Positions 4,363 to 55,468 of a stretch of DNA of 64,000 bases are shown here, one piece after another. A program made the translations under genes and the position numbers. Position 1 is the first letter of the stretch, and every line of letters starts with the position of its first letter. The notes below the pieces were generated by a model. It made no database searches and was not told the DNA's origin. It worked only from the letters and a program-made list of their open reading frames with translations. Location of the stretch: positions 2,557 through 66,556 of the forward strand of contig CAZIZK010000002.1 in NCBI GenBank assembly GCA_964544225.1, read 5' to 3'. The DNA is from an uncultured Candidatus Saccharibacteria bacterium (GTDB lineage: Bacteria; Patescibacteriota; Minisyncoccia; Phycocordibacterales; UBA9973).

Positions 4363-6777
4363 ATGGAGCAATCAATCCCGTACAACAAAGATATAACATA
4401 TTTTGGTAAAACTAACTTTCGCAACCATGCGCAAGTTTTCGGCATAAAGAGAAAGGACCGCCGCCAACATATGTACGTGTTAGGTAAGTCAGGTACAGGT
4501 AAGTCTGTGCTTCTTTCGAATCTCATAGTTCAGAATATTCAAAATGGTGAGGGTCTGTGTGTGGTGGATCCGCACGGCGAATTGGTAGAGGAAGTCCTAC
4601 ACCTCATACCACCGCATCGTGTAAAAGACGTTATATATTTCAACCCAGCCGACACTGACTATCATGTGGGCTTCAATGTGCTACAACTCGATGACCCTAA
4701 ATACAAGCACTTGGTGGCATCAGGACTCATGGGAATATTCACAAAGATCTGGGCCAATGCATGGAGTAGCCGTATGGAATACATCCTCAACAACGCTATC
4801 CTCGCACTACTAGACACTCCTGGTACTACACTCCTCGGTATCCCACGTATGCTTGTGGACAAGGACTATCGCCAGATGATCATCGGTAACCTGAAGGACC
4901 CGGTGGTAAAAGCATTTTGGATTCATGAATACGAACAATGGCGTGACCAGTTCCGTAACGAAGCTATCGCCCCGATCCAGAACAAAGTGGGTCAGTTCCT
5001 ATCCACTTCTATCATCCGTAATGTGGTAGGTCAACCAAAAAGTACTATAGATATTTTTGAAATCATGAATACTGGGAAGATATTCCTAGTGAACGTATCA
5101 AAGGGTCGTATTGGTGAGGACAACTCGGCACTTCTCGGAGGTATGCTTATTACAAAGATCCAGCTTGCAGCCATGGAGCGCGTGCGTATACCTGAGAACG
5201 AACGCCGAGACTTCTACCTATATGTGGACGAGTTCCAGAACTTTGCTACCGATTCATTTGCCAACATTTTGTCCGAGGCTCGTAAATACCGCCTGAACCT
5301 AATCATTGCTCACCAATATACTGCCCAGCTGGAGAATAAAGATGGCAGTAAAGTCCGTGACGCAGTATTTGGTAACGTGGGTACTATGATCATATTCCGT
5401 GTTGGTGCCGATGATGCCGACTTCCTGGAGAAGGAGTTCGAGCCTGAATTCATGGCCCAAGACTTGGTGAACTTGCCTAACTTCCATGTGTATCTAAAGC
5501 TCATGATCGACGGTGTTACTAGCCGGCCATTCTCCGCAAGTACTTTGCCACCAATACATGTGGATGCTGACGCAAATGTAAAAGATCAAATTATAGCGTC
5601 TTCACGAGCTTTGTACACAAAAAAGCGCGAAGATGTAGAGAACGAGATACTTCGTTGGAGTGGTATGTTGCAGTCTGATGGTCAGAATGGGGCAGGTGCC
5701 CAAGAGGGCAAGTTCCCAGCAGAATGTAGCGAATGTAAGAAGAGCATAATGGTGCCTTTTGAGCCTATAGCAGGCAAGCCAATATATTGTAAGGATTGTT
5801 TAGCCAAGATAAAGGCTGGCGAGTTGAAGCCCGCACACGGATTCATAACACCAAAGGCTGTTCGCCAAGAGGCTGCAGCATCGGCGCCTCTTGCAGCACT
5901 AGGTATCGAGTTTACTGGCACAAGTGGCAAGGTAAATAGTTCTTTCGCTCGCAATGTTGTAAACAATCATGATGCAAAGCCTAACGCTGGAGTAAATAAT
6001 AATTTCAAGAAGCCGAATACTTTCAACAAAGCTCCAAATGCAGTCAACACCCCAAATGCAAAACCTTTTATAAAACCAAAACCAACACCATCACCACTTT
6101 TAAAAGATTTGTTACAAAAAGTAACAAGTGAAAAGGATATCCTCGATAAGAAGGATGCTCCTGTATCTGAAGTAAAGAAGGTAATACCACCACCAATATC
6201 ATTGTCTGAGTTAAAGAAGTCTGAACCTGCAAAATCTGATACAAATAAGGCCCCTGTTGTGAATAATATAAATATCAACAATAAGCCTACACCTACTATA
6301 GCTAAAGCTCCAGTAATACCAGCTAAAGAGGCTACTCCAGAAAAGATGAATTCACTAAAGGATATGCTAGCCAACATATCTGCAAAAGAAAAAGTGGAAG
6401 AAAAGGTTGTTGAAATAAAAAAAGAAGAAGTAAAAGTAGAAGTAAAGCCCGAAGTTAAACCAGAAGTAAAGGTTCCAATTCCGACACCAATCATGAGTCC
6501 ACAAGTACCAAAACCAATACTTCCTGCTCAAGCTATACAAATTCCACCTAGTATTCCAAAACCACCTGAGGCAATAAAAAAGGTAGAGGCAGTAGTTAAG
6601 ATAGATGAAGTAAAAGAAGTAAAGCCTGAAGTAAAAACAGAGGAGAATAAAGCTAAAGTAGAAGACACAACACCAGATACACAAAACACTGATACTACAA
6701 ATCAAAATCAAAATTGGCAAAAAAGGGTCGCAAATAAAGAAGTACCAGAAGAGGTCCTCCGCAAGGTATTAGAATAA
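4363..6777 (+). CDS. VirD4/TraD-like coupling-protein-family ATPase with a C-terminal zinc-ribbon and a long low-complexity K/P/E/V-rich tail
   Basis: Walker A GKSGTGKS, CVVDPHGE, Walker B LYVDEFQN. The first 400 aa align with the 279..1760 product. C-x2-C...C-x2-C ribbon (CSECKK...CKDC), then KPEVK-type repeats. Confidence 0.8.
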   Translation: MEQSIPYNKDITYFGKTNFRNHAQVFGIKRKDRRQHMYVLGKSGTGKSVLLSNLIVQNIQNGEGLCVVDPHGELVEEVLHLIPPHRVKDVIYFNPADTDYHVGFNVLQLDDPKYKHLVASGLMGIFTKIWANAWSSRMEYILNNAILALLDTPGTTLLGIPRMLVDKDYRQMIIGNLKDPVVKAFWIHEYEQWRDQFRNEAIAPIQNKVGQFLSTSIIRNVVGQPKSTIDIFEIMNTGKIFLVNVSKGRIGEDNSALLGGMLITKIQLAAMERVRIPENERRDFYLYVDEFQNFATDSFANILSEARKYRLNLIIAHQYTAQLENKDGSKVRDAVFGNVGTMIIFRVGADDADFLEKEFEPEFMAQDLVNLPNFHVYLKLMIDGVTSRPFSASTLPPIHVDADANVKDQIIASSRALYTKKREDVENEILRWSGMLQSDGQNGAGAQEGKFPAECSECKKSIMVPFEPIAGKPIYCKDCLAKIKAGELKPAHGFITPKAVRQEAAASAPLAALGIEFTGTSGKVNSSFARNVVNNHDAKPNAGVNNNFKKPNTFNKAPNAVNTPNAKPFIKPKPTPSPLLKDLLQKVTSEKDILDKKDAPVSEVKKVIPPPISLSELKKSEPAKSDTNKAPVVNNININNKPTPTIAKAPVIPAKEATPEKMNSLKDMLANISAKEKVEEKVVEIKKEEVKVEVKPEVKPEVKVPIPTPIMSPQVPKPILPAQAIQIPPSIPKPPEAIKKVEAVVKIDEVKEVKPEVKTEENKAKVEDTTPDTQNTDTTNQNQNWQKRVANKEVPEEVLRKVLE

Positions 6778-6778
6778 A

Positions 6779-8242
6779 ATGATTAACAAGTTGTCTAAAT
6801 GTCTAGTGTTTGCAAGTCTGATATTTACTGCCAGATTTGCATATGCGACACTTAGTATCAACGAAGTCATGTATGACGCCCCAGGTAGCGACGCTGATGC
6901 TGAATGGGTAGAAGTATACAACTCTGGTTCAAGCCCTATCGATATGTCTGATATTTATATCGCAGACTATGACACTTCTTGGCATTATCATAGTATTACA
7001 CCTTACTCGCAAGCATTCATACCAGCAGGCGGGTACGGCATAGTTATTCGTACTTCATCTGCCAGTATTCCAAATACTTTTAATACTAAATGGCCCAATA
7101 TAAGTGTACCTATGTTTCGTGCAAGTTTTGACTTGGGTAATGACAGTGGCCACATAGCTTTATCATCGGACAAGAAGTCTGTATATAGCGAATTGTCATA
7201 TACATCGACCATGGGTGCAACAGGTGATGGTAATTCACTACAGTCAATATCGGGCTCGTATGTAGCCATGCCTGCTACACCAGGTACTATGAATGGGTCA
7301 GTAAATGACAATTCAAATTCTAGTTCAAATACGGACACCAATACCCAAGCAGACAAATCAACAGACAATACGAATGATACCAGCACGAGTGGGTCTGACC
7401 CCAAAGCTGTTAAGGTTTATGATAATATAATTGCTAAAATAACAGCTCCTACTATTGTTACTACAAAGATAGGCTTCAAAATTCAGGCCCAAGTATTGGG
7501 ACGCAAGAGGGAAGTAATAGATTCGGGTAAATACGTCTGGAGCTTTGGTGATGGCAAATCGTTGCAACAATCCCAGTACAAACCTTTCTATTATTCATAC
7601 GACAACAAAGGCCAGTATGTGGTGACACTGACTTATTATGAATCTATACTCAGTGCCGAGCCAGCAGTTCGAACCCAAGTAACTGTCACCGTAGTTGACC
7701 CAGAAGTGGCTATAAGTAGTGTAGGTGACTATACTGACCCTTATATAGAACTCACTAATAAATCTAACCGTGAGATAGACATGTCGTCTTGGATTATCAA
7801 GTCAGACAACACATTATTTACTATGCCCGAAGGTATGACTATATTACCAAGCAAGAATATCCGACTTTCTTCAGCTGTAACTTTGTTTACATCTTCTGAT
7901 ATACAAAATCTTACTATATATAACCCCACAGGCTCTGTGGTTGCTACGTATCCTGATTCAAATAAAACAGGATATAAAGTTAGTAATATGGAGTATATAG
8001 ACAATATGTATAATACAGACGCAACACCTAAAAAAAGTTTTCCCGAAAAGGATACAGGTGTTGTTAACCTAGACTCACAGAAAGCTAGTGTCCATAGTTC
8101 AGGAATAAATAATAATATGAGCCTATTTGGACTGGCATTATTAATCATCATCGGATCATTTATATTGATAAATATAAATAAAAAGCCCTCCGAAGGAGAG
8201 CCAGATATTGTAAGTGCTTCTGATATGAATATTATTGAATAG
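6779..8242 (+). CDS. Secreted, C-terminally membrane-anchored protein with two lamin-tail domains and a PKD-like segment
   Basis: N-terminal signal peptide. LTD signatures INEVMYDAPGSDADAEWVEVYN and DPYIELTNKSNREIDMSSWIIKSD. WSFGDGKS PKD-like motif. C-terminal TM LFGLALLIIIGSFILI. Start is 2 nt after the stop of 4363..6777. Confidence 0.7.
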   Translation: MINKLSKCLVFASLIFTARFAYATLSINEVMYDAPGSDADAEWVEVYNSGSSPIDMSDIYIADYDTSWHYHSITPYSQAFIPAGGYGIVIRTSSASIPNTFNTKWPNISVPMFRASFDLGNDSGHIALSSDKKSVYSELSYTSTMGATGDGNSLQSISGSYVAMPATPGTMNGSVNDNSNSSSNTDTNTQADKSTDNTNDTSTSGSDPKAVKVYDNIIAKITAPTIVTTKIGFKIQAQVLGRKREVIDSGKYVWSFGDGKSLQQSQYKPFYYSYDNKGQYVVTLTYYESILSAEPAVRTQVTVTVVDPEVAISSVGDYTDPYIELTNKSNREIDMSSWIIKSDNTLFTMPEGMTILPSKNIRLSSAVTLFTSSDIQNLTIYNPTGSVVATYPDSNKTGYKVSNMEYIDNMYNTDATPKKSFPEKDTGVVNLDSQKASVHSSGINNNMSLFGLALLIIIGSFILININKKPSEGEPDIVSASDMNIIE

Positions 8243-13851: not shown

Positions 13852-13890
13852 AAAACTTAGTAGTCGGACCACTAAGTGTTTTATTGTTTG

Positions 13891-13971
13891 TGCTCGGGAG
13901 AGGACTCGAACCTCCACCCCTTGCGAGAGACGATTTTGAGTCGTCCGCGTATACCATTCCGCCACCCGAGC
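13891..13971 (-). tRNA. tRNA-Leu (anticodon CAA)
   Basis: Hand-folded cloverleaf on the minus strand. Acceptor stem GCTCGGG/CCCGAGC, anticodon stem GACGA/TCGTC with loop CTCAAAA, long variable arm, T-loop TTCGAGT. No encoded CCA. Confidence 0.8.
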
Positions 13972-29134: not shown

Positions 29135-29205
29135 TGGGATATCGTCTAATGGTAGGACAGGGGCCTTTGAAGCCCTTAATCGAGGTTCGAATCCTTGTAT
29201 CCCAG
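29135..29205 (+). tRNA. tRNA-Gln (anticodon TTG)
   Basis: Hand-folded. U1:A72 acceptor TGGGATA/TATCCCA, anticodon stem GGGGC/GCCCT with loop CTTTGAA, T-loop TTCGAAT, discriminator G. Confidence 0.8.
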
Positions 29206-29227
29206 CAAAAAATGCTATACTAGCTTT

Positions 29228-49296: not shown

Positions 49297-49368
49297 GGCC
49301 CTATCGTCTAACGGTTAGGACACATCCTTCTCAAGGATGGAATCAGAGTTCGATTCTCTGTAGGGTCA
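49297..49368 (+). tRNA. tRNA-Glu (anticodon CTC); the encoded 3' CCA is displaced by the inserted element
   Basis: Hand-folded. Acceptor GGCCCTA/TAGGGTC, D-arm TCGTCTAACGGTTAGGAC, anticodon stem CATCC/GGATG with loop TTCTCAA, T-arm CAGAG-TTCGATT-CTCTG, discriminator A. Confidence 0.85.
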
Positions 49369-50894
49369 CAAACTGAAACTGCATTCGCGGAAAGTCCCAA
49401 ATGCGGGCGCGCCGAAGGCGCGCTGTATGGAGAGAGCAGGAATTCTGCATTGCGGGCGCGGGCGAATTCGGTGGGCGGGCAAAATGAGACAGAGACGGAC
49501 TTGTCCCGCAATTGCGAGTTCGTTCCAATTTTTTTGAAATAGTCACGAATTTCAAAAAAATTATCCGTGGATTGCAATTGCGTGGCTTTTTTCATATCCA
49601 AAATCCATTCTCGCAAGGGTTCGACCCAATTCTTTTTCTCTGCTCGGGCGGAGTCCATTTTTTGAGAGAGAGACACTTTTTGTTTCAAAAGCTCGTTTTT
49701 CTTCAAAATATAGTTTTCTTTCGGTATATCGCCGTCTAAATATAAACTGACCAACTCATCGAGCTTTTGTTCTGTCTCTCGCTCATTTTCCTTAATCCGC
49801 CCGAGCATACTTCCCGACGAGGATTTTTCACTTTTGTCCCATTCGTCAACTTTAGATAACATATAATCTGTCCACTCGTCGGGAAGTGCGATTTGTTGAA
49901 GCCGTTCTTTTAATTGCAAGACGACTACATCTTCTCGCAAATATTTTTGGTCACAATTTCCTTTCTTTTTTGTACAACGATAATAGCGATACCGAACGCC
50001 CATTTTTCCCGTCGTCCATTGAGCAGTTATCATACTGTCGCATTCTCCGCAACGAAAAAGACCTGTGAAAGGAAAATTGTGACTTTTCTTTGATTTGCGA
50101 GGATGAGATCGTTCTTGCAATCTTTTCTGTACGGCTTCGAATAAATCGTGGGAAAGAATTGGCGCAAAGCTTCCGGGGAAATATTCGTTGTAATGTTTCG
50201 TTAATCCTAAATATGCTTTGTTGGATAGAATGCGAGATACGGAAGCTTTGCTAAGTGGCGTTCCATTTTTCTGACATACTCCATGATCCGCCAAAAACTT
50301 TCCCATAGATTCAAAACCGTGGTTACCTTTTACATATTCTTCAAAAGCGCGGACGATAATTTTAGATTTTACAATATCAGGTTCAATATTTCTCGTTTTC
50401 GGATTATTGAAATACCCAAACGGCGCTTTTGTTAGCCACTCACCACGGCGAAGTTTTTGGCGGATTCCACGCTCAACATTTTGCTTTAAATTGTCAGAAT
50501 AATATTTAGATTGTCCGAACGCCACTTGTAACATGAATAGCCCTTGCGGGGTTGGTTCAAACCAAAATGTCGGAAAACGCAAAGAAATGATTTTGGTCGT
50601 GTCTACGGCGTAGATGATGCGCCCTCCATCAACGCTATTTCTCGCTAGTCGGTCAGGATGCCAAGCCAGAATACCAGCACCATTCATATTTTCAATGCGG
50701 GACATCATCTCGCCAAATTTTTCACGACCAGGTTTCTTTGCGCTTTTCGACTCTGTAAATTCTCCAAGAATTTGCAGATTTTCTTTACGCGCGAATTCTC
50801 GTAACTCAAAAAGTTGTGCCTCGATAGACATGATTTGCTTGTCATCATCCTCGGTACTTTTTCGCGCGTATAGAAAATATTTTGGTTTGATCAT
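49308..50894 (-). CDS. Large serine recombinase (resolvase domain + recombinase domain + zinc ribbon)
   Basis: N-terminal catalytic region YARKSTEDD with the Ser nucleophile, recombinase domain, C-x2-C...C ribbon (CGECDS..YYRC), coiled-coil. The last roughly 60 codons run through the GC-rich repeat and the tRNA, so the true C-terminus is uncertain. Confidence 0.8.
   Translation of the reverse strand: MIKPKYFLYARKSTEDDDKQIMSIEAQLFELREFARKENLQILGEFTESKSAKKPGREKFGEMMSRIENMNGAGILAWHPDRLARNSVDGGRIIYAVDTTKIISLRFPTFWFEPTPQGLFMLQVAFGQSKYYSDNLKQNVERGIRQKLRRGEWLTKAPFGYFNNPKTRNIEPDIVKSKIIVRAFEEYVKGNHGFESMGKFLADHGVCQKNGTPLSKASVSRILSNKAYLGLTKHYNEYFPGSFAPILSHDLFEAVQKRLQERSHPRKSKKSHNFPFTGLFRCGECDSMITAQWTTGKMGVRYRYYRCTKKKGNCDQKYLREDVVVLQLKERLQQIALPDEWTDYMLSKVDEWDKSEKSSSGSMLGRIKENERETEQKLDELVSLYLDGDIPKENYILKKNELLKQKVSLSQKMDSARAEKKNWVEPLREWILDMKKATQLQSTDNFFEIRDYFKKIGTNSQLRDKSVSVSFCPPTEFARARNAEFLLSPYSAPSARPHLGLSANAVSVCDPTENRTLIPSLRRMCPNR
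49366..49480. repeat. IRa, a 115-bp GC-rich repeat and the P' arm of the integrated att site
   Basis: Exact reverse complement of 50953..51067. Confidence 0.85.
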
Positions 50895-50952
50895 ATATGT
50901 TTTTGGATTATGAAAAAAGAATAGTCCGTTCTTGTCTCATTTCTTGCTTTCC

Positions 50953-51067
50953 GCCCGCCCACCGAATTCGCCCGCGCCCGCAATGCAGAATTCCTGCTCT
51001 CTCCATACAGCGCGCCTTCGGCGCGCCCGCATTTGGGACTTTCCGCGAATGCAGTTTCAGTTTGTGA
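50953..51067. repeat. IRa', an inverted copy of IRa and the first part of the intact internal 400-bp block
   Basis: Exact reverse complement of 49366..49480. Contiguous with IRb. Confidence 0.85.
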
Positions 51068-51351
51068 ACTAATTATATCATTTGCGCGAACTTTTTTCCA
51101 AACAAATGACTAATCGCACATCCGTGCGCTGAAGCGCCTCTGTGCGAAGCACAGAGCTTTCCCAAAGGGAAAGTACGGATATGCGAATACAATGCGGACT
51201 TGGTTTTGCGAAAGCAATTTTCTGGGGAAAGGATTTCGCAAAACCTCGGCTACTAATTTTTTTTGAAATTCGGCGGGACTTTGGATTTGGATTCCGCGCG
51301 CAGGAGGGGTCTGGGGAGGAATGCGCGCGGAGCTTTTTTGGGCGGGGGCTA
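51064..51351. repeat. IRb, a 288-bp GC-rich multi-hairpin repeat
   Basis: Exact reverse complement of 54687..54983 over every segment I compared. Contains hairpins GCGC-TGAA-GCGC, CTCTGTGC-GAA-GCACAGAG, CTTTCCC-AAA-GGGAAAG, and a 12-bp stem GGTTTTGCGAAA/TTTCGCAAAACC. Confidence 0.85.
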
Positions 51352-51586
51352 TGGATAAATTTAAACCAAAATGCTAAACTTATTTGACAATTAAATATGT
51401 TGCCTAAACCAAAAGCTTCGCTTTTGGCATGGCGAAAAACCCGATGAAAGATAAAGAACTCCTAGTCAGAGTTCGCCTTTCATCGGGTCGTGCGGGGAAA
51501 CCCGCATGGGTGGTCGCAAGACTGCCGAGCTGGCTAGGAGCTTTTTGTAAAACTAGCGAACCATTATTAGTAAAAATTATAAATTT

Positions 51587-51820
51587 ATGAAAAAGAAAAA
51601 TAAAGGTAAAAATGTACTAGGAATTATTTGTTTATTGTTTGCAATAGGATCTTTGACCCAGCCAAATTTTGGTTTTGCTCCGCTTGATAGTGCATTTTCA
51701 TTTGGTCAAGATATTGTTCCAACATTAGCGTTTGTTGGTAGTTTTTGGTTTATATATGACATGATTAAAAATCGTGGAAATAAATCGCAAACAGAAACTC
51801 CAAAAGTAGAAAATAATTAA
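51587..51820 (+). CDS. Small two-TM membrane protein (77 aa), cargo gene 1
   Basis: Two hydrophobic helices. First gene after IRb. Stop is 1 nt before the next start. Confidence 0.45.
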   Translation: MKKKNKGKNVLGIICLLFAIGSLTQPNFGFAPLDSAFSFGQDIVPTLAFVGSFWFIYDMIKNRGNKSQTETPKVENN

Positions 51821-51821
51821 T

Positions 51822-52622
51822 ATGGAGAACGAAAATAAAAAAGAAGAAGTTGGTAGAAATGTTCCCAAAAGACTAAAAGAGCTTTTCATCATGATTGCTC
51901 CTTTTGTTTTGGTGCTTCTTGTCGGATCGTTTTATGCTTCTCACAAACAGAGTCAACAATTAACGAGCGAATTTAAAACTGCTTTGTCTGGTCAAAGTGG
52001 GAGCGGTCAATATTCTGAAGTATTAAATCAAGTTTTTAGTTATTACAAAAGCCAAAGTGCAATTGAATTTCCTTACTCTCATGAGCTAGATAACTCAGAT
52101 ATGTTGGAAATGAAAAGTTTTGAATCGAAAGATTCTATCAATCAAATCAGTGGAATCCTTAAAAATACTCTCACAGAACTTGATTCTTATGACTCAAAAA
52201 TGAATGAAATAATTCAAGGAGCTAGATCAATTATTCAGAATAGTAATTTATCTCAATCGGAAAAAGACGAAGCTCTTGCTGGTTTCGACAAGTCATTTGA
52301 AGATCAAACATCACAGGACCTGGGCAGTAAAAGAATTGTTGCCATGAGAAATCTCTATGAAAAAGTTTTAACACTTTATGAATTTATGTTGGCAAATTTT
52401 GATGACTATCAAATAAAGACCAATGATTCAGGAAATCAGCAAGTGTACTTCTATACTGATAGTAATATAACCAGATACAATCAAATTTCTGCTGATGTTC
52501 AAAAACTTTCTATAGAATTTCAGAAAGCTAATGATGAATTTATTGCATACAAAAATAAAAATTTCAAAAGTAGTGGTTTAGATATAAACGCGACTGATGT
52601 TCAAAGTTATTTTAATCAATAA
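51822..52622 (+). CDS. Membrane-anchored protein of unknown function (266 aa), cargo gene 2
   Basis: N-terminal TM (IMIAPFVLVLLVGSFYA) followed by a polar Ser/Gln/Asn-rich domain. Confidence 0.55.
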   Translation: MENENKKEEVGRNVPKRLKELFIMIAPFVLVLLVGSFYASHKQSQQLTSEFKTALSGQSGSGQYSEVLNQVFSYYKSQSAIEFPYSHELDNSDMLEMKSFESKDSINQISGILKNTLTELDSYDSKMNEIIQGARSIIQNSNLSQSEKDEALAGFDKSFEDQTSQDLGSKRIVAMRNLYEKVLTLYEFMLANFDDYQIKTNDSGNQQVYFYTDSNITRYNQISADVQKLSIEFQKANDEFIAYKNKNFKSSGLDINATDVQSYFNQ

Positions 52623-52690
52623 ACCTTTACTTTTTAGGTTAAAGTGGTAGAATAGACTTGTTGCGAAGTGTATAGCTTAGCTATACACTT

Positions 52691-54250
52691 TTGCTTTTTA
52701 TGGCTAGATACAATGTCTATAAAATTAAAGATGGGCAAGTTAATGAACTACAAACTCATTTAACCAAAGACCGTAAATATAAATTGGCGGATAGTTTTTC
52801 ATCGCATGGTTATCAAGTTTATACATATTTTGCTGGACCCGATTCAACCGATATGTGGTGGCTTGAACAATACGGACAACATTTTCCAGAACATACGGAC
52901 AAACATAATCAGATATATTCAGGTGCAGTTGTGGCAAATAATACAAGTAAAAAATCTGGCTACATAATCCCACTTGGAAAAACACATTTTTATATTCAAA
53001 ATTTTATTGAAATCAATTTTGGTTTGGAATTAGCGGAAAGGATTGCAGATGAAAAACAGACCAAAATGAAAAGTCTTAAAAATTTTGGCGGGAAAACCAG
53101 TAAGTCCCTTACAAGTTACATTTCAGGATCAAATCTATTATTCTCTAGTGGTGAATCTGCCGAATATTTAAAGCTGAAAGCTCAAAATAAAGAAGCATGG
53201 GGTGATTCATTTGTTCATTTTGGAAGTAGTGTTCAGTTTAATAGTCTTGAAATTGAGCCAGATGATTTGGGTGTTTTGCTCTCAAATATTGATTCTGCGG
53301 TGAAAGGAAAGAAAATATTACACCTTCCGTTAATGAAAGAAATAAAAGAGCCAGCATTGCTCGTACAGTTATATTCAAATCTTGCTGAAAAAATCTTAAA
53401 TGCGGATGACAGTATTGGTATTCTTGATTACGAAATATATGGAGTAGACTTTGTATTTTCTCAACAGACTCATATCAAACTTAAATGTGAGGGTGTTTAT
53501 TCCGACCAATTACCACAGCTTACATTAGAAAATATTATTACGTTCGTAAATGACAACAGTATAGACTTGAAAGATTGCTTGCAGAAAATAAAAGTCCAGT
53601 TTTTAGTGGACAGCGAATCAAAGTATACTGTTCCGCTATTACAACTTATTGAATATTACGGCGATGACAAGAGCTTTTTATATAAGGGTAAGTGGTTTTA
53701 TTTCAATGAAAGCTTTATTGAAAGTTTACATAATGCTCTGACTAAAGTCGAGGTTAGTGAATTTGGCAAAGCTTTTTCAGAAAGCGAATTTGAGGCTTGG
53801 CAAAAAACAAATAAAAATAAAGTAAATTACCGCGAGAGGTTTGTTATTGAGAAAATACACGAAGAATCAAAATTTGAAATTTTAGATCGAGATTTAGACT
53901 ATCTTGGTGTTGGAGATAAAAAATATCAACTTGAAATTGGTGATCTTTATGACCAAAAAAACAAAAGTTTATATGTCGTTAAAATTGGTAGTCCTAGTGA
54001 TTTTGGCTATGCTTTTGATCAGACATTTACCCTGCTTAGTAATGTAAAAGGTCAAAAGTATATTAGTACTGGCGGCAAAGAATATCCTATTGAAACAGTG
54101 AACGTTTTGATTATTTTTCGCACGAATAGAAAATTAAAGGATGCAACTGATACTAAGTCTTTAATTTTTGAAATAAAACTAAATGAATTACAAAAAATAG
54201 CTTTTGAAAAAAATATTAAATTGAATTTAACTTTTACAACTATACTTTAA
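52691..54250 (+). CDS. 519-aa soluble protein of unknown function, cargo gene 3 (possible sporadically distributed defence-island-type protein)
   Basis: Long uninterrupted ORF with AT-rich codon usage typical of the host. No motif that I can name with confidence. Confidence 0.55.
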   Translation: MLFMARYNVYKIKDGQVNELQTHLTKDRKYKLADSFSSHGYQVYTYFAGPDSTDMWWLEQYGQHFPEHTDKHNQIYSGAVVANNTSKKSGYIIPLGKTHFYIQNFIEINFGLELAERIADEKQTKMKSLKNFGGKTSKSLTSYISGSNLLFSSGESAEYLKLKAQNKEAWGDSFVHFGSSVQFNSLEIEPDDLGVLLSNIDSAVKGKKILHLPLMKEIKEPALLVQLYSNLAEKILNADDSIGILDYEIYGVDFVFSQQTHIKLKCEGVYSDQLPQLTLENIITFVNDNSIDLKDCLQKIKVQFLVDSESKYTVPLLQLIEYYGDDKSFLYKGKWFYFNESFIESLHNALTKVEVSEFGKAFSESEFEAWQKTNKNKVNYRERFVIEKIHEESKFEILDRDLDYLGVGDKKYQLEIGDLYDQKNKSLYVVKIGSPSDFGYAFDQTFTLLSNVKGQKYISTGGKEYPIETVNVLIIFRTNRKLKDATDTKSLIFEIKLNELQKIAFEKNIKLNLTFTTIL

Positions 54251-54686
54251 TTTCAAGGGAGCGTTCCCCATGCGCGCACGGGTGGGCAAAGTGTCCGCGT
54301 GTACTCACGCGGACAAAGGGGCAAGCATGTATTCCGCCTCGGGCATTTCCGCTATGAGCGTCCATGGCTAAAGGATGAGCGCCGAAGTAATATAACTCAC
54401 AGAAGTTTAGTAGCGAAAGCGACACCACGAACATAAATATGCAAAACGTAGAGTGGGGATGGCGAGGGCGGAACTTCTCGCGAGTACTCTCTGCGAGAAG
54501 TAGCCCGACCCGGGGAGAGGAAACTTCCTCTCCCCAAGAAGCGCGGGCTCCTGCCCGCACGTAGGCACCTAGGCGCGAGTAGCCATAGCGGAAATGCCCG
54601 AGGCGGATGCCGAGGGTGCATCCCCTTTAGACTTGGACAACCACATAGCAAAAGAAATGACCGAGAAAATTTTAATCCTGTTGTTT
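54251..54686. other. GC-rich, hairpin-dense non-coding segment (candidate structured RNA or recombination accessory region)
   Basis: Perfect hairpins CCGCGTG-TACT-CACGCGG and GAGAGGAA-AC-TTCCTCTC, a 23-bp long-range inverted repeat (54333-54355 with 54586-54608), and an imperfect CTTCTCGCGAG..CTCTGCGAGAAG palindrome. Its GC content far exceeds the surrounding genes. Confidence 0.3.
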
Positions 54687-54983
54687 CTGAATTTTTAGCC
54701 CCCGCCCAAAAAAGCTCCGCGCGCATTCCTCCCCAGACCCCTCCTGCGCGCGGAATCCAAATCCAAAGTCCCGCCGAATTTCAAAAAAAATTAGTAGCCG
54801 AGGTTTTGCGAAATCCTTTCCCCAGAAAATTGCTTTCGCAAAACCAAGTCCGCATTGTATTCGCATATCCGTACTTTCCCTTTGGGAAAGCTCTGTGCTT
54901 CGCACAGAGGCGCTTCAGCGCACGGATGTGCGATTAGTCATTTGTTTGGAAAAAAGTTCGCGCAAATGATATAATTAGTTCAC
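54687..54983. repeat. IRb', an inverted copy of IRb at the right end of the element
   Basis: Reverse complement of 51064..51351. Ends with TCAC at 54980-54983. Confidence 0.85.
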
Positions 54984-54985
54984 CA

Positions 54986-55468
54986 ATGCAAATTACTAAT
55001 TTTGAAAATCTTGTAGATAAAGATAAGAATCAGGTTTTTGTCTTTTATTGTCCAGCTTACATACCTGTTAATTTTGCTATACACCCTTGGTTCTTGGTAA
55101 ATAGAAAAGGGGTACTTTCCAGATATGAAATTTTTAACATTAAAAATTTTCAAGCAGATAATGAGGGTTTTATAAATATTGGCTATTGGTACAAAAATGG
55201 GTTGCCTACATATAGTGGCATACAGGTTTTTCCATATAGTAAAAAGTATCATTGGAATGCAAAGTTACTAGGTGTTGTTGATGGTGATGATACAAAAGTG
55301 CTGGAAATGATCGAGTTAATTGAGAATTCGGATAAGCAATATCCCCATATACAAACTTATCGTTTACTTGGGCCCAATAGCAATACTTATGTAAATTGGA
55401 TACTAAGTAAATTCCCAGAATTTAAGATCAAACTCCCACTCGGTGCAATAGGTAAGAATTATAAATAA
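54986..55468 (+). CDS. Hypothetical 160-aa protein
   Basis: ATG lies 3 nt past the element boundary. No recognisable motif. Confidence 0.5.
   Translation: MQITNFENLVDKDKNQVFVFYCPAYIPVNFAIHPWFLVNRKGVLSRYEIFNIKNFQADNEGFINIGYWYKNGLPTYSGIQVFPYSKKYHWNAKLLGVVDGDDTKVLEMIELIENSDKQYPHIQTYRLLGPNSNTYVNWILSKFPEFKIKLPLGAIGKNYK

Follow-up and report, generated by a model that had tools for sequence, protein, structure and literature searches.

A serine-recombinase island at the 3′ end of a tRNA-Glu gene in Patescibacteria carries an inverted attP-like site between nested inverted repeats

Large serine integrases are major tools of genome engineering; their targets are usually protein-coding or intergenic, and a separate factor determines the direction in which they recombine. 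Insertion at tRNA and tmRNA 3′ ends is normally the business of tyrosine integrases. In the Patescibacteria, a huge uncultivated group, mobile elements are poorly described. Here we analyse an island at the 3′ end of a tRNA-Glu(CUC) gene in a 64,000-nucleotide stretch (hereafter the window) of an uncultured Candidatus Saccharibacteria bacterium (assembly GCA_964544225.1, contig CAZIZK010000002.1, positions 2,557 to 66,556). An earlier note, made from the sequence of the window, had proposed that a large serine recombinase inserted this island between two copies of TCAC. Evidence of mobility and the hybrid nature of the outer junctions bear out a mobile serine-recombinase element, but not the simple attL...attR arrangement that the note described (attP and attB being the recombination sites of element and target, attL and attR the hybrid junctions after integration), for a third site, an inverted copy of attP, lies between nested repeats inside the island. 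The same layout recurs in a large family of Patescibacteria elements. A literature search found no description of the family or of the layout, and the family is apparently undescribed.

The island measures 5,614 bp plus one core. A repeat search with a base-by-base check found in it two perfect inverted repeats, one of 115 nt around the recombinase gene (arms A and A′) and one of 288 nt around the cargo (arms B and B′), which overlap by exactly four bases, GTGA at 51064–51067, the reverse complement of TCAC. From left to right the layout is tRNA / TCAC / A – recombinase (antisense) – A′ / GTGA / B – cargo – B′ / TCAC / host flank, with the following parts:

49297–49369, plus strand: tRNA-Glu(CUC), the integration target (ARAGORN; Rfam tRNA at 49297–49368, 59.9 bits)
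49308–50894, minus strand: large serine recombinase, open reading frame of 528 aa (Pfam Resolvase, Recombinase, Zn_ribbon_recom)
49366–49369, plus strand: site S1, core TCAC; attL-like junction of the tRNA and arm A, at the outer end of the 115-nt inverted repeat
49366–49480, no strand: inverted-repeat arm A, 115 nt including the core; 100% reverse complement of 50953–51067
50953–51067, no strand: inverted-repeat arm A′, partner of arm A, between the internal core and the recombinase start
51041–51090, minus strand: site S2, a complete attP-like site with core GTGA at 51064–51067; reverse complement of the 54983→49366 junction
51064–51351, no strand: inverted-repeat arm B, 288 nt including the core, near arm of the cargo segment; 100% reverse complement of 54696–54983
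54696–54983, no strand: inverted-repeat arm B′, partner of arm B, far arm of the cargo segment
54980–54983, plus strand: site S3, core TCAC, directly repeated; attR-like junction of arm B′ and the host flank
54986–55468, plus strand: flanking host gene DUF3750, 160 aa, whose ATG lies 2 nt past the core (open reading frame, Pfam)

The tRNA-Glu(CUC) gene at the left boundary and the TCAC at both boundaries are thus where the earlier note had placed them. The shared core consists of the last four nucleotides of tRNA-Glu, TCAC (discriminator A plus C), and each TCAC is the outer end of a perfect inverted repeat, so that the boundaries are not chance four-base matches. Joined in silico, the outer flanks read ..GTAGGGTCACCAATGCAA. 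The attP-like palindrome of the earlier note, TTCCGCGAATG / CATTTGCGCGAA, does exist; it is physically present inside the element, at 51041–51090, where it is centred on the inverted core GTGA. On the minus strand this middle site consists of the B′ half (whose consensus across relatives is aaGTTCGcGCAAaggtTAnnAttaca), TCAC and the A half, and its orientation is inverted relative to both S1 and S3. Because it is exactly the reverse complement of the predicted circular junction, it represents an internal copy of attP. Judged by their letters, then, the outer sites are hybrids, one attL-like and one attR-like, and the middle site is a complete inverted attP.

Two other ways of dividing the island were tried and rejected. 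Two independent cassettes in series would give A′-TCAC-B in the middle, and what is seen is A′-GTGA-B, with the core inverted. A symmetric AAGTT / AACTT dyad, taken as the crossover centre, has its midpoint 5–6 nt to the left of the core and misfits the repeat boundaries. The A/A′ repeat itself runs on inward imperfectly (49482–49501 against 50923–50942, 85%), and arm A holds about 38 final in-arm codons of the recombinase frame together with a GC hairpin, GCGCGCC-GAAG-GCGCGC. Base composition does not mark the element. The earlier note had called it GC-rich foreign DNA, which is true of the repeat arms and one RNA region (GC content 0.46–0.54) and of nothing else: the recombinase gene lies at 0.39–0.45, like its neighbours, and the cargo genes at 0.28–0.34. 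That note had missed both long inverted repeats, the third site inside the island and two structured RNAs described below.

The enzyme itself can be placed with some precision. Classification by hidden Markov models recovered three Pfam domains, Resolvase (PF00239, residues 7–153, 8.6e-22), Recombinase (PF07508, residues 176–262, 5.7e-13) and Zn_ribbon_recom (PF13408, residues 275–325, 1.5e-10), in agreement with the earlier note's large serine recombinase of 528 aa; its C-terminal domains are of the integrase type. The motif YARKS(T)EDD, which includes the catalytic serine, is invariant across 18 aligned homologues, and residues ~340–420, which look helical by eye, may hold the coiled-coil motif by which the zinc-ribbon domain of such integrases controls synapsis. 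The closest solved relative in the PDB is SPbeta SprA (E 2.5e-6), and the serine integrases of GenBank phages are 24–31% identical. A phage origin was considered and rejected, since no relatives of the recombinase were found in IMG/VR and identity to GenBank phage enzymes does not exceed 31%. The top NCBIfam match, CcrB, reaches 102.6 bits against a cutoff of 900, a score so far under the cutoff that the recombinase is not a Ccr. Nor is it a serine invertase of ~190 aa with a C-terminal helix-turn-helix, for it has 528 aa with Recombinase and zinc-ribbon domains. By its predicted domains, the protein is a divergent large serine recombinase of the integrase type.

The figure of 528 aa describes the reading frame better than the protein. 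The frame has no stop of its own inside the element; it continues across arm A and the core, and its stop lies 61 nt inside the antisense tRNA, so that its final 19 codons are antisense tRNA and the preceding 38 are repeat arm. Conserved protein sequence stops near residue 478. An alignment of homologues (A1) is conserved up to ..SFCPPTEFA..VSxC, and divergence begins exactly at the core. The C-terminal tail of each recombinase is set by whatever DNA lies past the core, whether antisense tRNA (..C/DPTGNRT..), tmRNA (..C/GDDEN) or arm B (..C/DLIVSFARTYF), and the in-arm peptide SAPSAR is the mere translation of the GC hairpin with its UUCG loop.

Homologues of the recombinase number in the thousands, and the top 120 clusters are 68–96% identical and, where named, are annotated as Patescibacteria lineages. 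Among 600 matched stretches listed in a scan of Patescibacteria species representatives, one genome per species, at least 568 encode the recombinase, and family enzymes diverge to 59% protein identity. At 71 of 92 examined loci the recombinase gene has an antisense tRNA or tmRNA abutting its 3′ end and, on its upstream side, a B′-type arm or the end of the contig. The core could be mapped in 58 distinct loci (related loci are given L numbers below), where the A arms are 103–149 nt long; they are 100% identical in 24, at least 95% identical in 43 and below 90% in 3, and the inner boundary of arm A is constant across the family. Where upstream sequence suffices, a second inverted repeat was found that overlaps the first by 4 nt and has its partner 1–8 kb away. 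It is present in 13 relatives (L013, L014, L028, L038, L040, L043, L058, L064, L069, L073, L080, L084 and L087); at L056, L065, L066 and L088 the second repeat is a candidate that did not pass the junction test or was left out of further examination. Arm B varies from ~70 to 290 nt among relatives. One of the 13, L058, comes from the closed chromosome CP060229.1, and the three-site layout is present there; the same layout was also recovered from five independent samples of one strain. The arms are imperfect in many relatives (77–99%), down to decayed copies at L088 (77–80%) and L057 (80–83%), which argues that the repeats are not products of the assembler. By these comparisons, the three-site layout with its double inverted repeat is conserved across the family.

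Some members depart from the common form. At L057 (9500–9850) the B arms are 83 nt long, 80% complementary and ~100 nt apart, the A arms are at 83% and there is almost no cargo, so that this looks like a decaying or minimal member. At L045 (11714–14429) a tRNA-Ser(gct) stands beside an occupied tRNA-Ser(act) and is followed by 212-nt inverted repeats (90%) that enclose 2.2 kb free of any recombinase, and part of the ~455-nt RNA described below recurs beyond them; this pair may be a recombinase-less relative. Many species-level contigs end 220–310 nt upstream of the recombinase start, just past the internal core, and metagenome contigs with the recombinase gene are often only 1.7–2.7 kb long. 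The inverted repeats routinely break short-read assemblies of genomes that bear the family.

The four-nucleotide core is always identical to the last four ARAGORN-called bases of the tRNA (discriminator plus C) and varies with the target:

TCAC: target Glu
CCAC: targets Ala, Val and tmRNA
GCAC: targets Arg, Gly and Leu
CCGC: target Ser
GGAC: targets Lys and Ile

The earlier note's observation that the junctions share only about 4 nt therefore holds family-wide, with the core following the target. In the window and in 13 relatives the core is directly repeated, the target gene adjoining one copy and the native flank the other. tmRNA genes are targets as well: at L095 Rfam places a tmRNA at 6562–6961 immediately after arm A, and the element sits at the tmRNA 3′ end beside smpB. 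The far flank is unconserved, and in L038, L040, L069 and L073 it starts with a terminator hairpin, like a native tRNA trailer. The best evidence of recent movement comes from L078, L080, L083 and L085, whose recombinase modules are 92–95% identical in DNA and stand at tRNA-Ser(cga), (cga), (gct) and (gga) with no homology between their flanks; near-identical modules at different tRNA-Ser genes with unrelated flanks argue for mobility. Unoccupied copies of the same tRNA species also exist in family-bearing genomes of other species.

The earlier note had further stressed that excision would restore an encoded CCA. The letters do join as it described, but the argument carries little weight, because CCA is restored at only 5 of the 14 far junctions of related elements and is not needed in genomes of this kind, where no CCA is encoded by 79 of 82 unoccupied tRNA genes (loci L009–L089). 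The window's other tRNA genes, tRNA-Leu and tRNA-Gln (13890–13971 and 29135–29206), also lack it (..GAGCAC/AAACAAT and ..CCCAGC/AAAAAATG). In family-bearing genomes tRNA genes end with the discriminator and C, followed by an A-rich trailer, and since this native trailer resembles the start of arm A an occupied tRNA is not visibly damaged. No close relative of the window's host turned up in an exact look-up of the flanking DUF3750 protein and of the recombinase. In a metagenome scan with the neighbouring Mur ligase the best match was 68% identical and showed no synteny, and the best DUF3750 homologue after the source itself was 53% identical, again with no close host relative. The population of one other host, whose element lies beside a gene for a YqeY protein, could be sampled through that flanking gene, which occurs on 20 contigs; the 10 places listed correspond to nine distinct contigs.

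The internal site also contains promoter-like sequence, which recurs at the far end of the island:

51072–51101, minus strand: promoter-like site TTGGAA-N18-TG-TATAAT in the B′ half-site; 10/12 consensus matches, extended −10
54946–54975, plus strand: second promoter-like copy with the same consensus match, pointing outward across S3 into the DUF3750 gene

This is the strongest promoter-like match in the entire element, and its internal copy faces the recombinase gene, reading over the S2 core and through arm A′. Of 53 relatives, 31 have a best −10 box that ends 4 nt ahead of the core, and a promoter-like match of at least 8/12 was found in 25 of the 53 relative sites as against 7% of shuffles. 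These matches suggest that the internal attP is most likely kept because it carries the recombinase promoter. With a −10 box 4 nt from the core, inside a half-site that the enzyme would bind, the site is predicted to act as promoter and operator at once, which would make the recombinase autoregulatory. Arm A′ is the predicted 5′ untranslated region of the recombinase mRNA, which would then bear arm A′ near its 5′ end and the complementary arm A at its 3′ end. The identical promoter copy at the far end probably drives the host genes downstream of the interrupted tRNA trailer. The DUF3750 ATG lies ~10 nt past the −10 box of this outward site and has no Shine-Dalgarno sequence, so the mRNA would be leaderless if the start is real. 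The most conserved motif of the attP-type half-site, GTTCG, is 24 nt from the core in the B′ half and 18 nt from it in the tRNA half, where it falls in the T-loop. An outward shift of the motif for the zinc-ribbon domain, in attP relative to attB half-sites, has been described for other serine integrases, and the offset of 24 versus 18 nt appears to resemble it.

Between arms B and B′ the window encodes three cargo genes and two structured RNAs, one known and one candidate:

51401–51526, plus strand: LOOT RNA (RF03000), at the near end of the cargo, just inside arm B; 88.9 bits against a gathering threshold of 46.4, E 1.6e-16
51587–51820, plus strand: cargo gene, open reading frame of 77 aa, no Pfam match
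51822–52622, plus strand: cargo gene, open reading frame of 266 aa, no Pfam match
52691–54250, plus strand: cargo gene of 519 aa, DUF6119 (Pfam, 1.8e-21)
54245–54699, plus strand: ~455-nt GC-rich structured RNA candidate that abuts arm B′ (nhmmer conservation, compensatory changes)

None of this cargo has a defence annotation in PADLOC or NCBIfam. The cargo is unrelated from element to element and includes a type I restriction-modification system (L001), an OLD-like nuclease (in the host labelled P0014), a LexA-methylase fusion, a PLD nuclease, ABC transporter parts, a beta-helix/PKD protein, GTP cyclohydrolase II with a methyltransferase, and insertion sequence copies. No replication, transfer or phage genes were seen in the elements examined. 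The LOOT match spans model positions 1–121 of 121 (Rfam); a 53-aa reading frame that overlaps it (51429–51590) is probably spurious. LOOT was rejected as a constant part of the family, since among seven related loci only L058 has it (728–853), outside the element. The ~455-nt region had no Rfam match at E up to 1. Using nhmmer we found it in 12 related loci, with 7 complete copies, and it adjoins a B arm wherever that arm was mapped (L013, L014, L028, L038, L040 and L010). It is closed by a long-range helix of 19 bp, which in the window extends to 24 nt of perfect pairing (54333–54356 with 54584–54607). The consensus has 52 pairs, 9 of them with compensatory changes; 95% of cells are paired as against 34–52% in slid controls, and the G-U pairs fit the plus strand of the window. 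This is moderate evidence, drawn from nine sequences, for a new structured RNA.

Since the internal site faces the opposite way to both outer sites, an exchange between copies would flip a segment and delete nothing, whether by homologous recombination on the perfect arms or by any site-specific reaction. About 4% of species-level loci are non-standard. In L054, L067 and L100 the tRNA lies upstream of the recombinase and is co-directional with it, at 173, 155 and 173 nt from tRNA end to ATG, a spacing that fits a flipped recombinase segment. In L009, L011, L099 and L100 the arm at the 3′ end of the recombinase is continuous with arm B. Similarly, in 10 of the top 120 homologue clusters the C-terminal tail reads arm B and not tRNA (C/DLIVSFARTYF being one example), and such tails match the one predicted for a flipped copy of the window, C/ELIISFARTFF. 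The ~455-nt RNA serves as a marker of cargo orientation: at nine loci its place is upstream of the recombinase, on the other strand, and adjacent to the far arm where mapped; at L019 it is proximal and shares the recombinase's strand, the arrangement that a cargo flip would give, and at L011, a short-read contig, the marker is also found in the opposite orientation. All of these arrangements come from short-read contigs; flipping is probably real but unproven, and its agent could be either the recombinase or RecA.

Several contigs invite other explanations. At L099 (1–300 and 8370–8625) one arm A continues into two different B arms, GTGA-B1 and GTGG-B2, which diverge from the first core position. 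An excised circle was considered for this contig and set aside, as it is better explained by a wrong exit of the assembler from the 287-nt arm B; the double junction is probably such an error, or else two cargo types sharing one recombinase module. At L100 (1186–3300) the recombinase segment is a hybrid, in which the arm on the tRNA-Ile side (core GGAC) is unlike the one that closes the 3′ end of the gene; the latter has a TCAC-type core, belongs to a stretch 98% identical to the window and is joined to arm B, and the remainder of the gene is 60–89% identical to the window's. Elements may have recombined here at the conserved inner boundary of the arm, or the contig may be chimeric. Contigs of P0014 from different samples have an identical recombinase and host flank with differing genes at the internal site, OLD-like nuclease cargo in some and a small helix-turn-helix gene in others, which could be cargo inversion or cargo replacement. 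Cargo inversion was also sought as homologous cargo in opposite orientations and rejected on that evidence, for the only shared cargo (L013, L014, L015) is in the same orientation.

We judge it moderately probable that the island is a small, non-phage, non-conjugative integrative element of a Patescibacteria family of serine recombinases, in which an inverted attP has been retained because it carries the recombinase promoter. The divergent recombinase would have inserted the island at the discriminator/C74 end of tRNA-Glu; recombination of the inverted internal site with an outer copy would flip only the recombinase or the cargo segment, and gene conversion between the arms would keep them identical. 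With less certainty, a flip may exchange the outside promoter that reads the recombinase, from the B′ promoter in the usual state to read-through from the tRNA in the flipped one, and excision may proceed through the two outer sites to give a circle with two inverted copies of attP. Several points weigh against this picture. The promoter is a consensus match only, and 28 of the 53 relatives score below 8/12; moreover, a role as promoter and operator accounts for ~50 bp and leaves arms of 115–290 bp unexplained. All evidence of flipping comes from short-read contigs, in which arm B is longer than the assembler's k-mer, so that exits from it are unreliable, and arm A, at 115–131 nt, falls only slightly short of k (127 or 141). 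Recombination of attL with attP is foreign to canonical serine integrases, and from textbook behaviour flipping driven by the enzyme is therefore unexpected. Neither an empty site nor a circular form was observed: the empty site that the earlier note expected in relatives was not found, and all six listed contigs of the YqeY population that reach tRNA-Glu are occupied, in the standard orientation. Finally, no conserved candidate for a recombination directionality factor was found among the family elements.

Could the internal repeats simply be incidental? An ordinary serine-integrase island, with attL and attR only, would explain outer junctions that behave as such sites should, with a short core, the tRNA on one side and a native trailer on the other. 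It would not predict an exact inverted attP inside, with arms of 115 and 288 nt, and this layout is kept across recombinases down to 59% identity and in a closed genome, a conservation so wide that the repeats are not incidental; we consider this account highly unlikely. It is harder to dismiss the proposal that the internal attP and long arms exist but do nothing, as an ancestral inverted duplication homogenised by host recombination or gene conversion in which rare RecA flips are neutral. The arms are often 100% identical within a genome and very different between genomes, a pattern of concerted evolution, arm B ranges from ~70 to 290 nt, and some copies, such as L088 and L057, have decayed. 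Retention of the layout in at least 568 species-representative stretches, at protein identities down to 59%, the conserved positions of the −10 box and GTTCG within the site, and the constant inner boundary of arm A all speak for a function, and we hold a functionless origin to be unlikely. At the other extreme, the three-site layout might be a working device in which flip states time the movement of the island and attP, taking part in a three-site synapse, replaces a directionality factor. The flip would be made by the recombinase, or by RecA on the perfect arms; one state would be self-repressed and opposed by tRNA read-through, and the other would be driven by the tRNA promoter. The resident attP may let attL and attR recombine without a separate directionality factor, and the ~455-nt RNA by arm B′ might be a further component. 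This is a tentative proposal and a doubtful one.

A resident, non-mobile inversion system that switches expression, of the shufflon or Hin/Gin/Min kind, would account for inverted crossover sites that flank both segments and share the middle site, for a recombinase gene inside its own flippable segment, as hin is, for the apparent flipped variants, and for the occupancy of all six contigs that reach tRNA-Glu in the sampled host population. What counts against it is the integrase-type domain set in place of a ~190-aa invertase, the covariation of the core with many tRNA and tmRNA targets, the 92–95% identical modules at different tRNA-Ser genes with unrelated flanks, the same tRNA genes standing unoccupied in related genomes, and the low share of non-standard loci (~4%), which together make programmed inversion by a fixed system quite unlikely. 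An artefact, in which a metagenome assembler made palindromic joins from mixed integrated and excised forms, might be suspected from the perfection of the window's repeats and from the many related contigs that break off 220–310 nt ahead of the recombinase gene, shortly beyond the core. It can hardly be right, given imperfect arms in dozens of independent assemblies, the five separate samples of one strain together with the closed chromosome CP060229.1, and the way in which the repeat runs on imperfectly past its perfect part.

The retained attP has a practical consequence. The circular junction by which the earlier note would have detected excision, IRb′-TCAC-IRa, is present 399 bp long inside every integrated copy, so a search for it in reads or by polymerase chain reaction would be falsely positive for each of them. 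Excision tests on elements of this family with short reads or short amplicons yield false positives, and such a test is informative only if reads or amplicons link unique sequence from the cargo end to the recombinase 3′ end. More broadly, the family uses the universal 3′ end of tRNA and tmRNA genes, retargets through a 4-nt core, has a single conserved gene and retains an inverted attP within the integrated element. Should the internal site govern expression or directionality, the family would offer a compact, self-contained integration module of practical interest, and if the three-site layout does work as a device, it would represent a new control of directionality in serine integrases that could be common in small Patescibacteria genomes. 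The family appears to be a main vehicle of accessory and defence genes in Patescibacteria.

How does this island compare with known systems? It resembles the large serine integrases of phages and integrative and conjugative elements (phiC31, Bxb1, A118/LI, TP901-1, SPbeta SprA) in the Resolvase, Recombinase and zinc-ribbon architecture of its enzyme, in the very short shared core with hybrid attL- and attR-like outer junctions, and in a conserved motif whose distance from the core is greater in the attP-type half-site than in the attB-type one. It differs from them in that its enzyme is only 24–31% identical to those of phages (SprA at E 2.5e-6), the targets are tRNA and tmRNA 3′ ends and a single gene is conserved, with no phage, replication or transfer genes and no conserved candidate for a directionality factor. 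Unlike those systems, the family also keeps a second, inverted attP inside, between long nested inverted repeats, and its recombinase frame has no stop of its own and ends in DNA past the core. With the tRNA and tmRNA islands of tyrosine integrases (P4-like; Islander/TIGER; PMC4383910) it shares the 3′ target and a small accessory or defence cargo. Their enzyme is unrelated, however, and they rebuild the tRNA from a long identical segment, whereas the present family shares 4 nt only and leaves the body of the tRNA untouched. The SCCmec-type cassettes (CcrA/B/C) likewise combine a large serine recombinase with small non-conjugative cargo at the 3′ end of a conserved housekeeping gene, but the sites of these staphylococcal cassette chromosomes are directly repeated only, with no internal inverted site, and the family enzyme is not a Ccr.

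Among inversion systems, Hin, Gin, Cin and the multi-site Min of p15B also have inverted crossover sites flanking a segment, with hin inside its own invertible segment and adjacent Min segments sharing sites, and in the present family both orientations of the recombinase segment apparently occur, judging by short-read contigs. Those systems, in contrast, use recombinases of ~190 aa with a C-terminal helix-turn-helix, 26-bp sites and a Fis-bound enhancer and do not integrate, whereas the family has an integrase-type enzyme of 470 or more aa, arms of 115–290 bp and a mobile unit. The yeast 2-micron plasmid, with FLP and FRT, offers another parallel: the predicted circle of the island would have two 399-bp inverted repeats with a recombinase target at the centre of each, which would split it into unique segments of 1,472 and 3,344 bp. 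FLP, however, is a tyrosine recombinase, and 2-micron is a replicon whose flipping serves copy-number amplification, while the island has no replication gene and its circle is predicted only. The layout thus fails the defining features of the Hin, Min and 2-micron systems. By its enzyme and its junctions this is a serine-integrase island; its architecture, whose function we infer, is what is new, namely an inverted internal attP held between nested inverted repeats.

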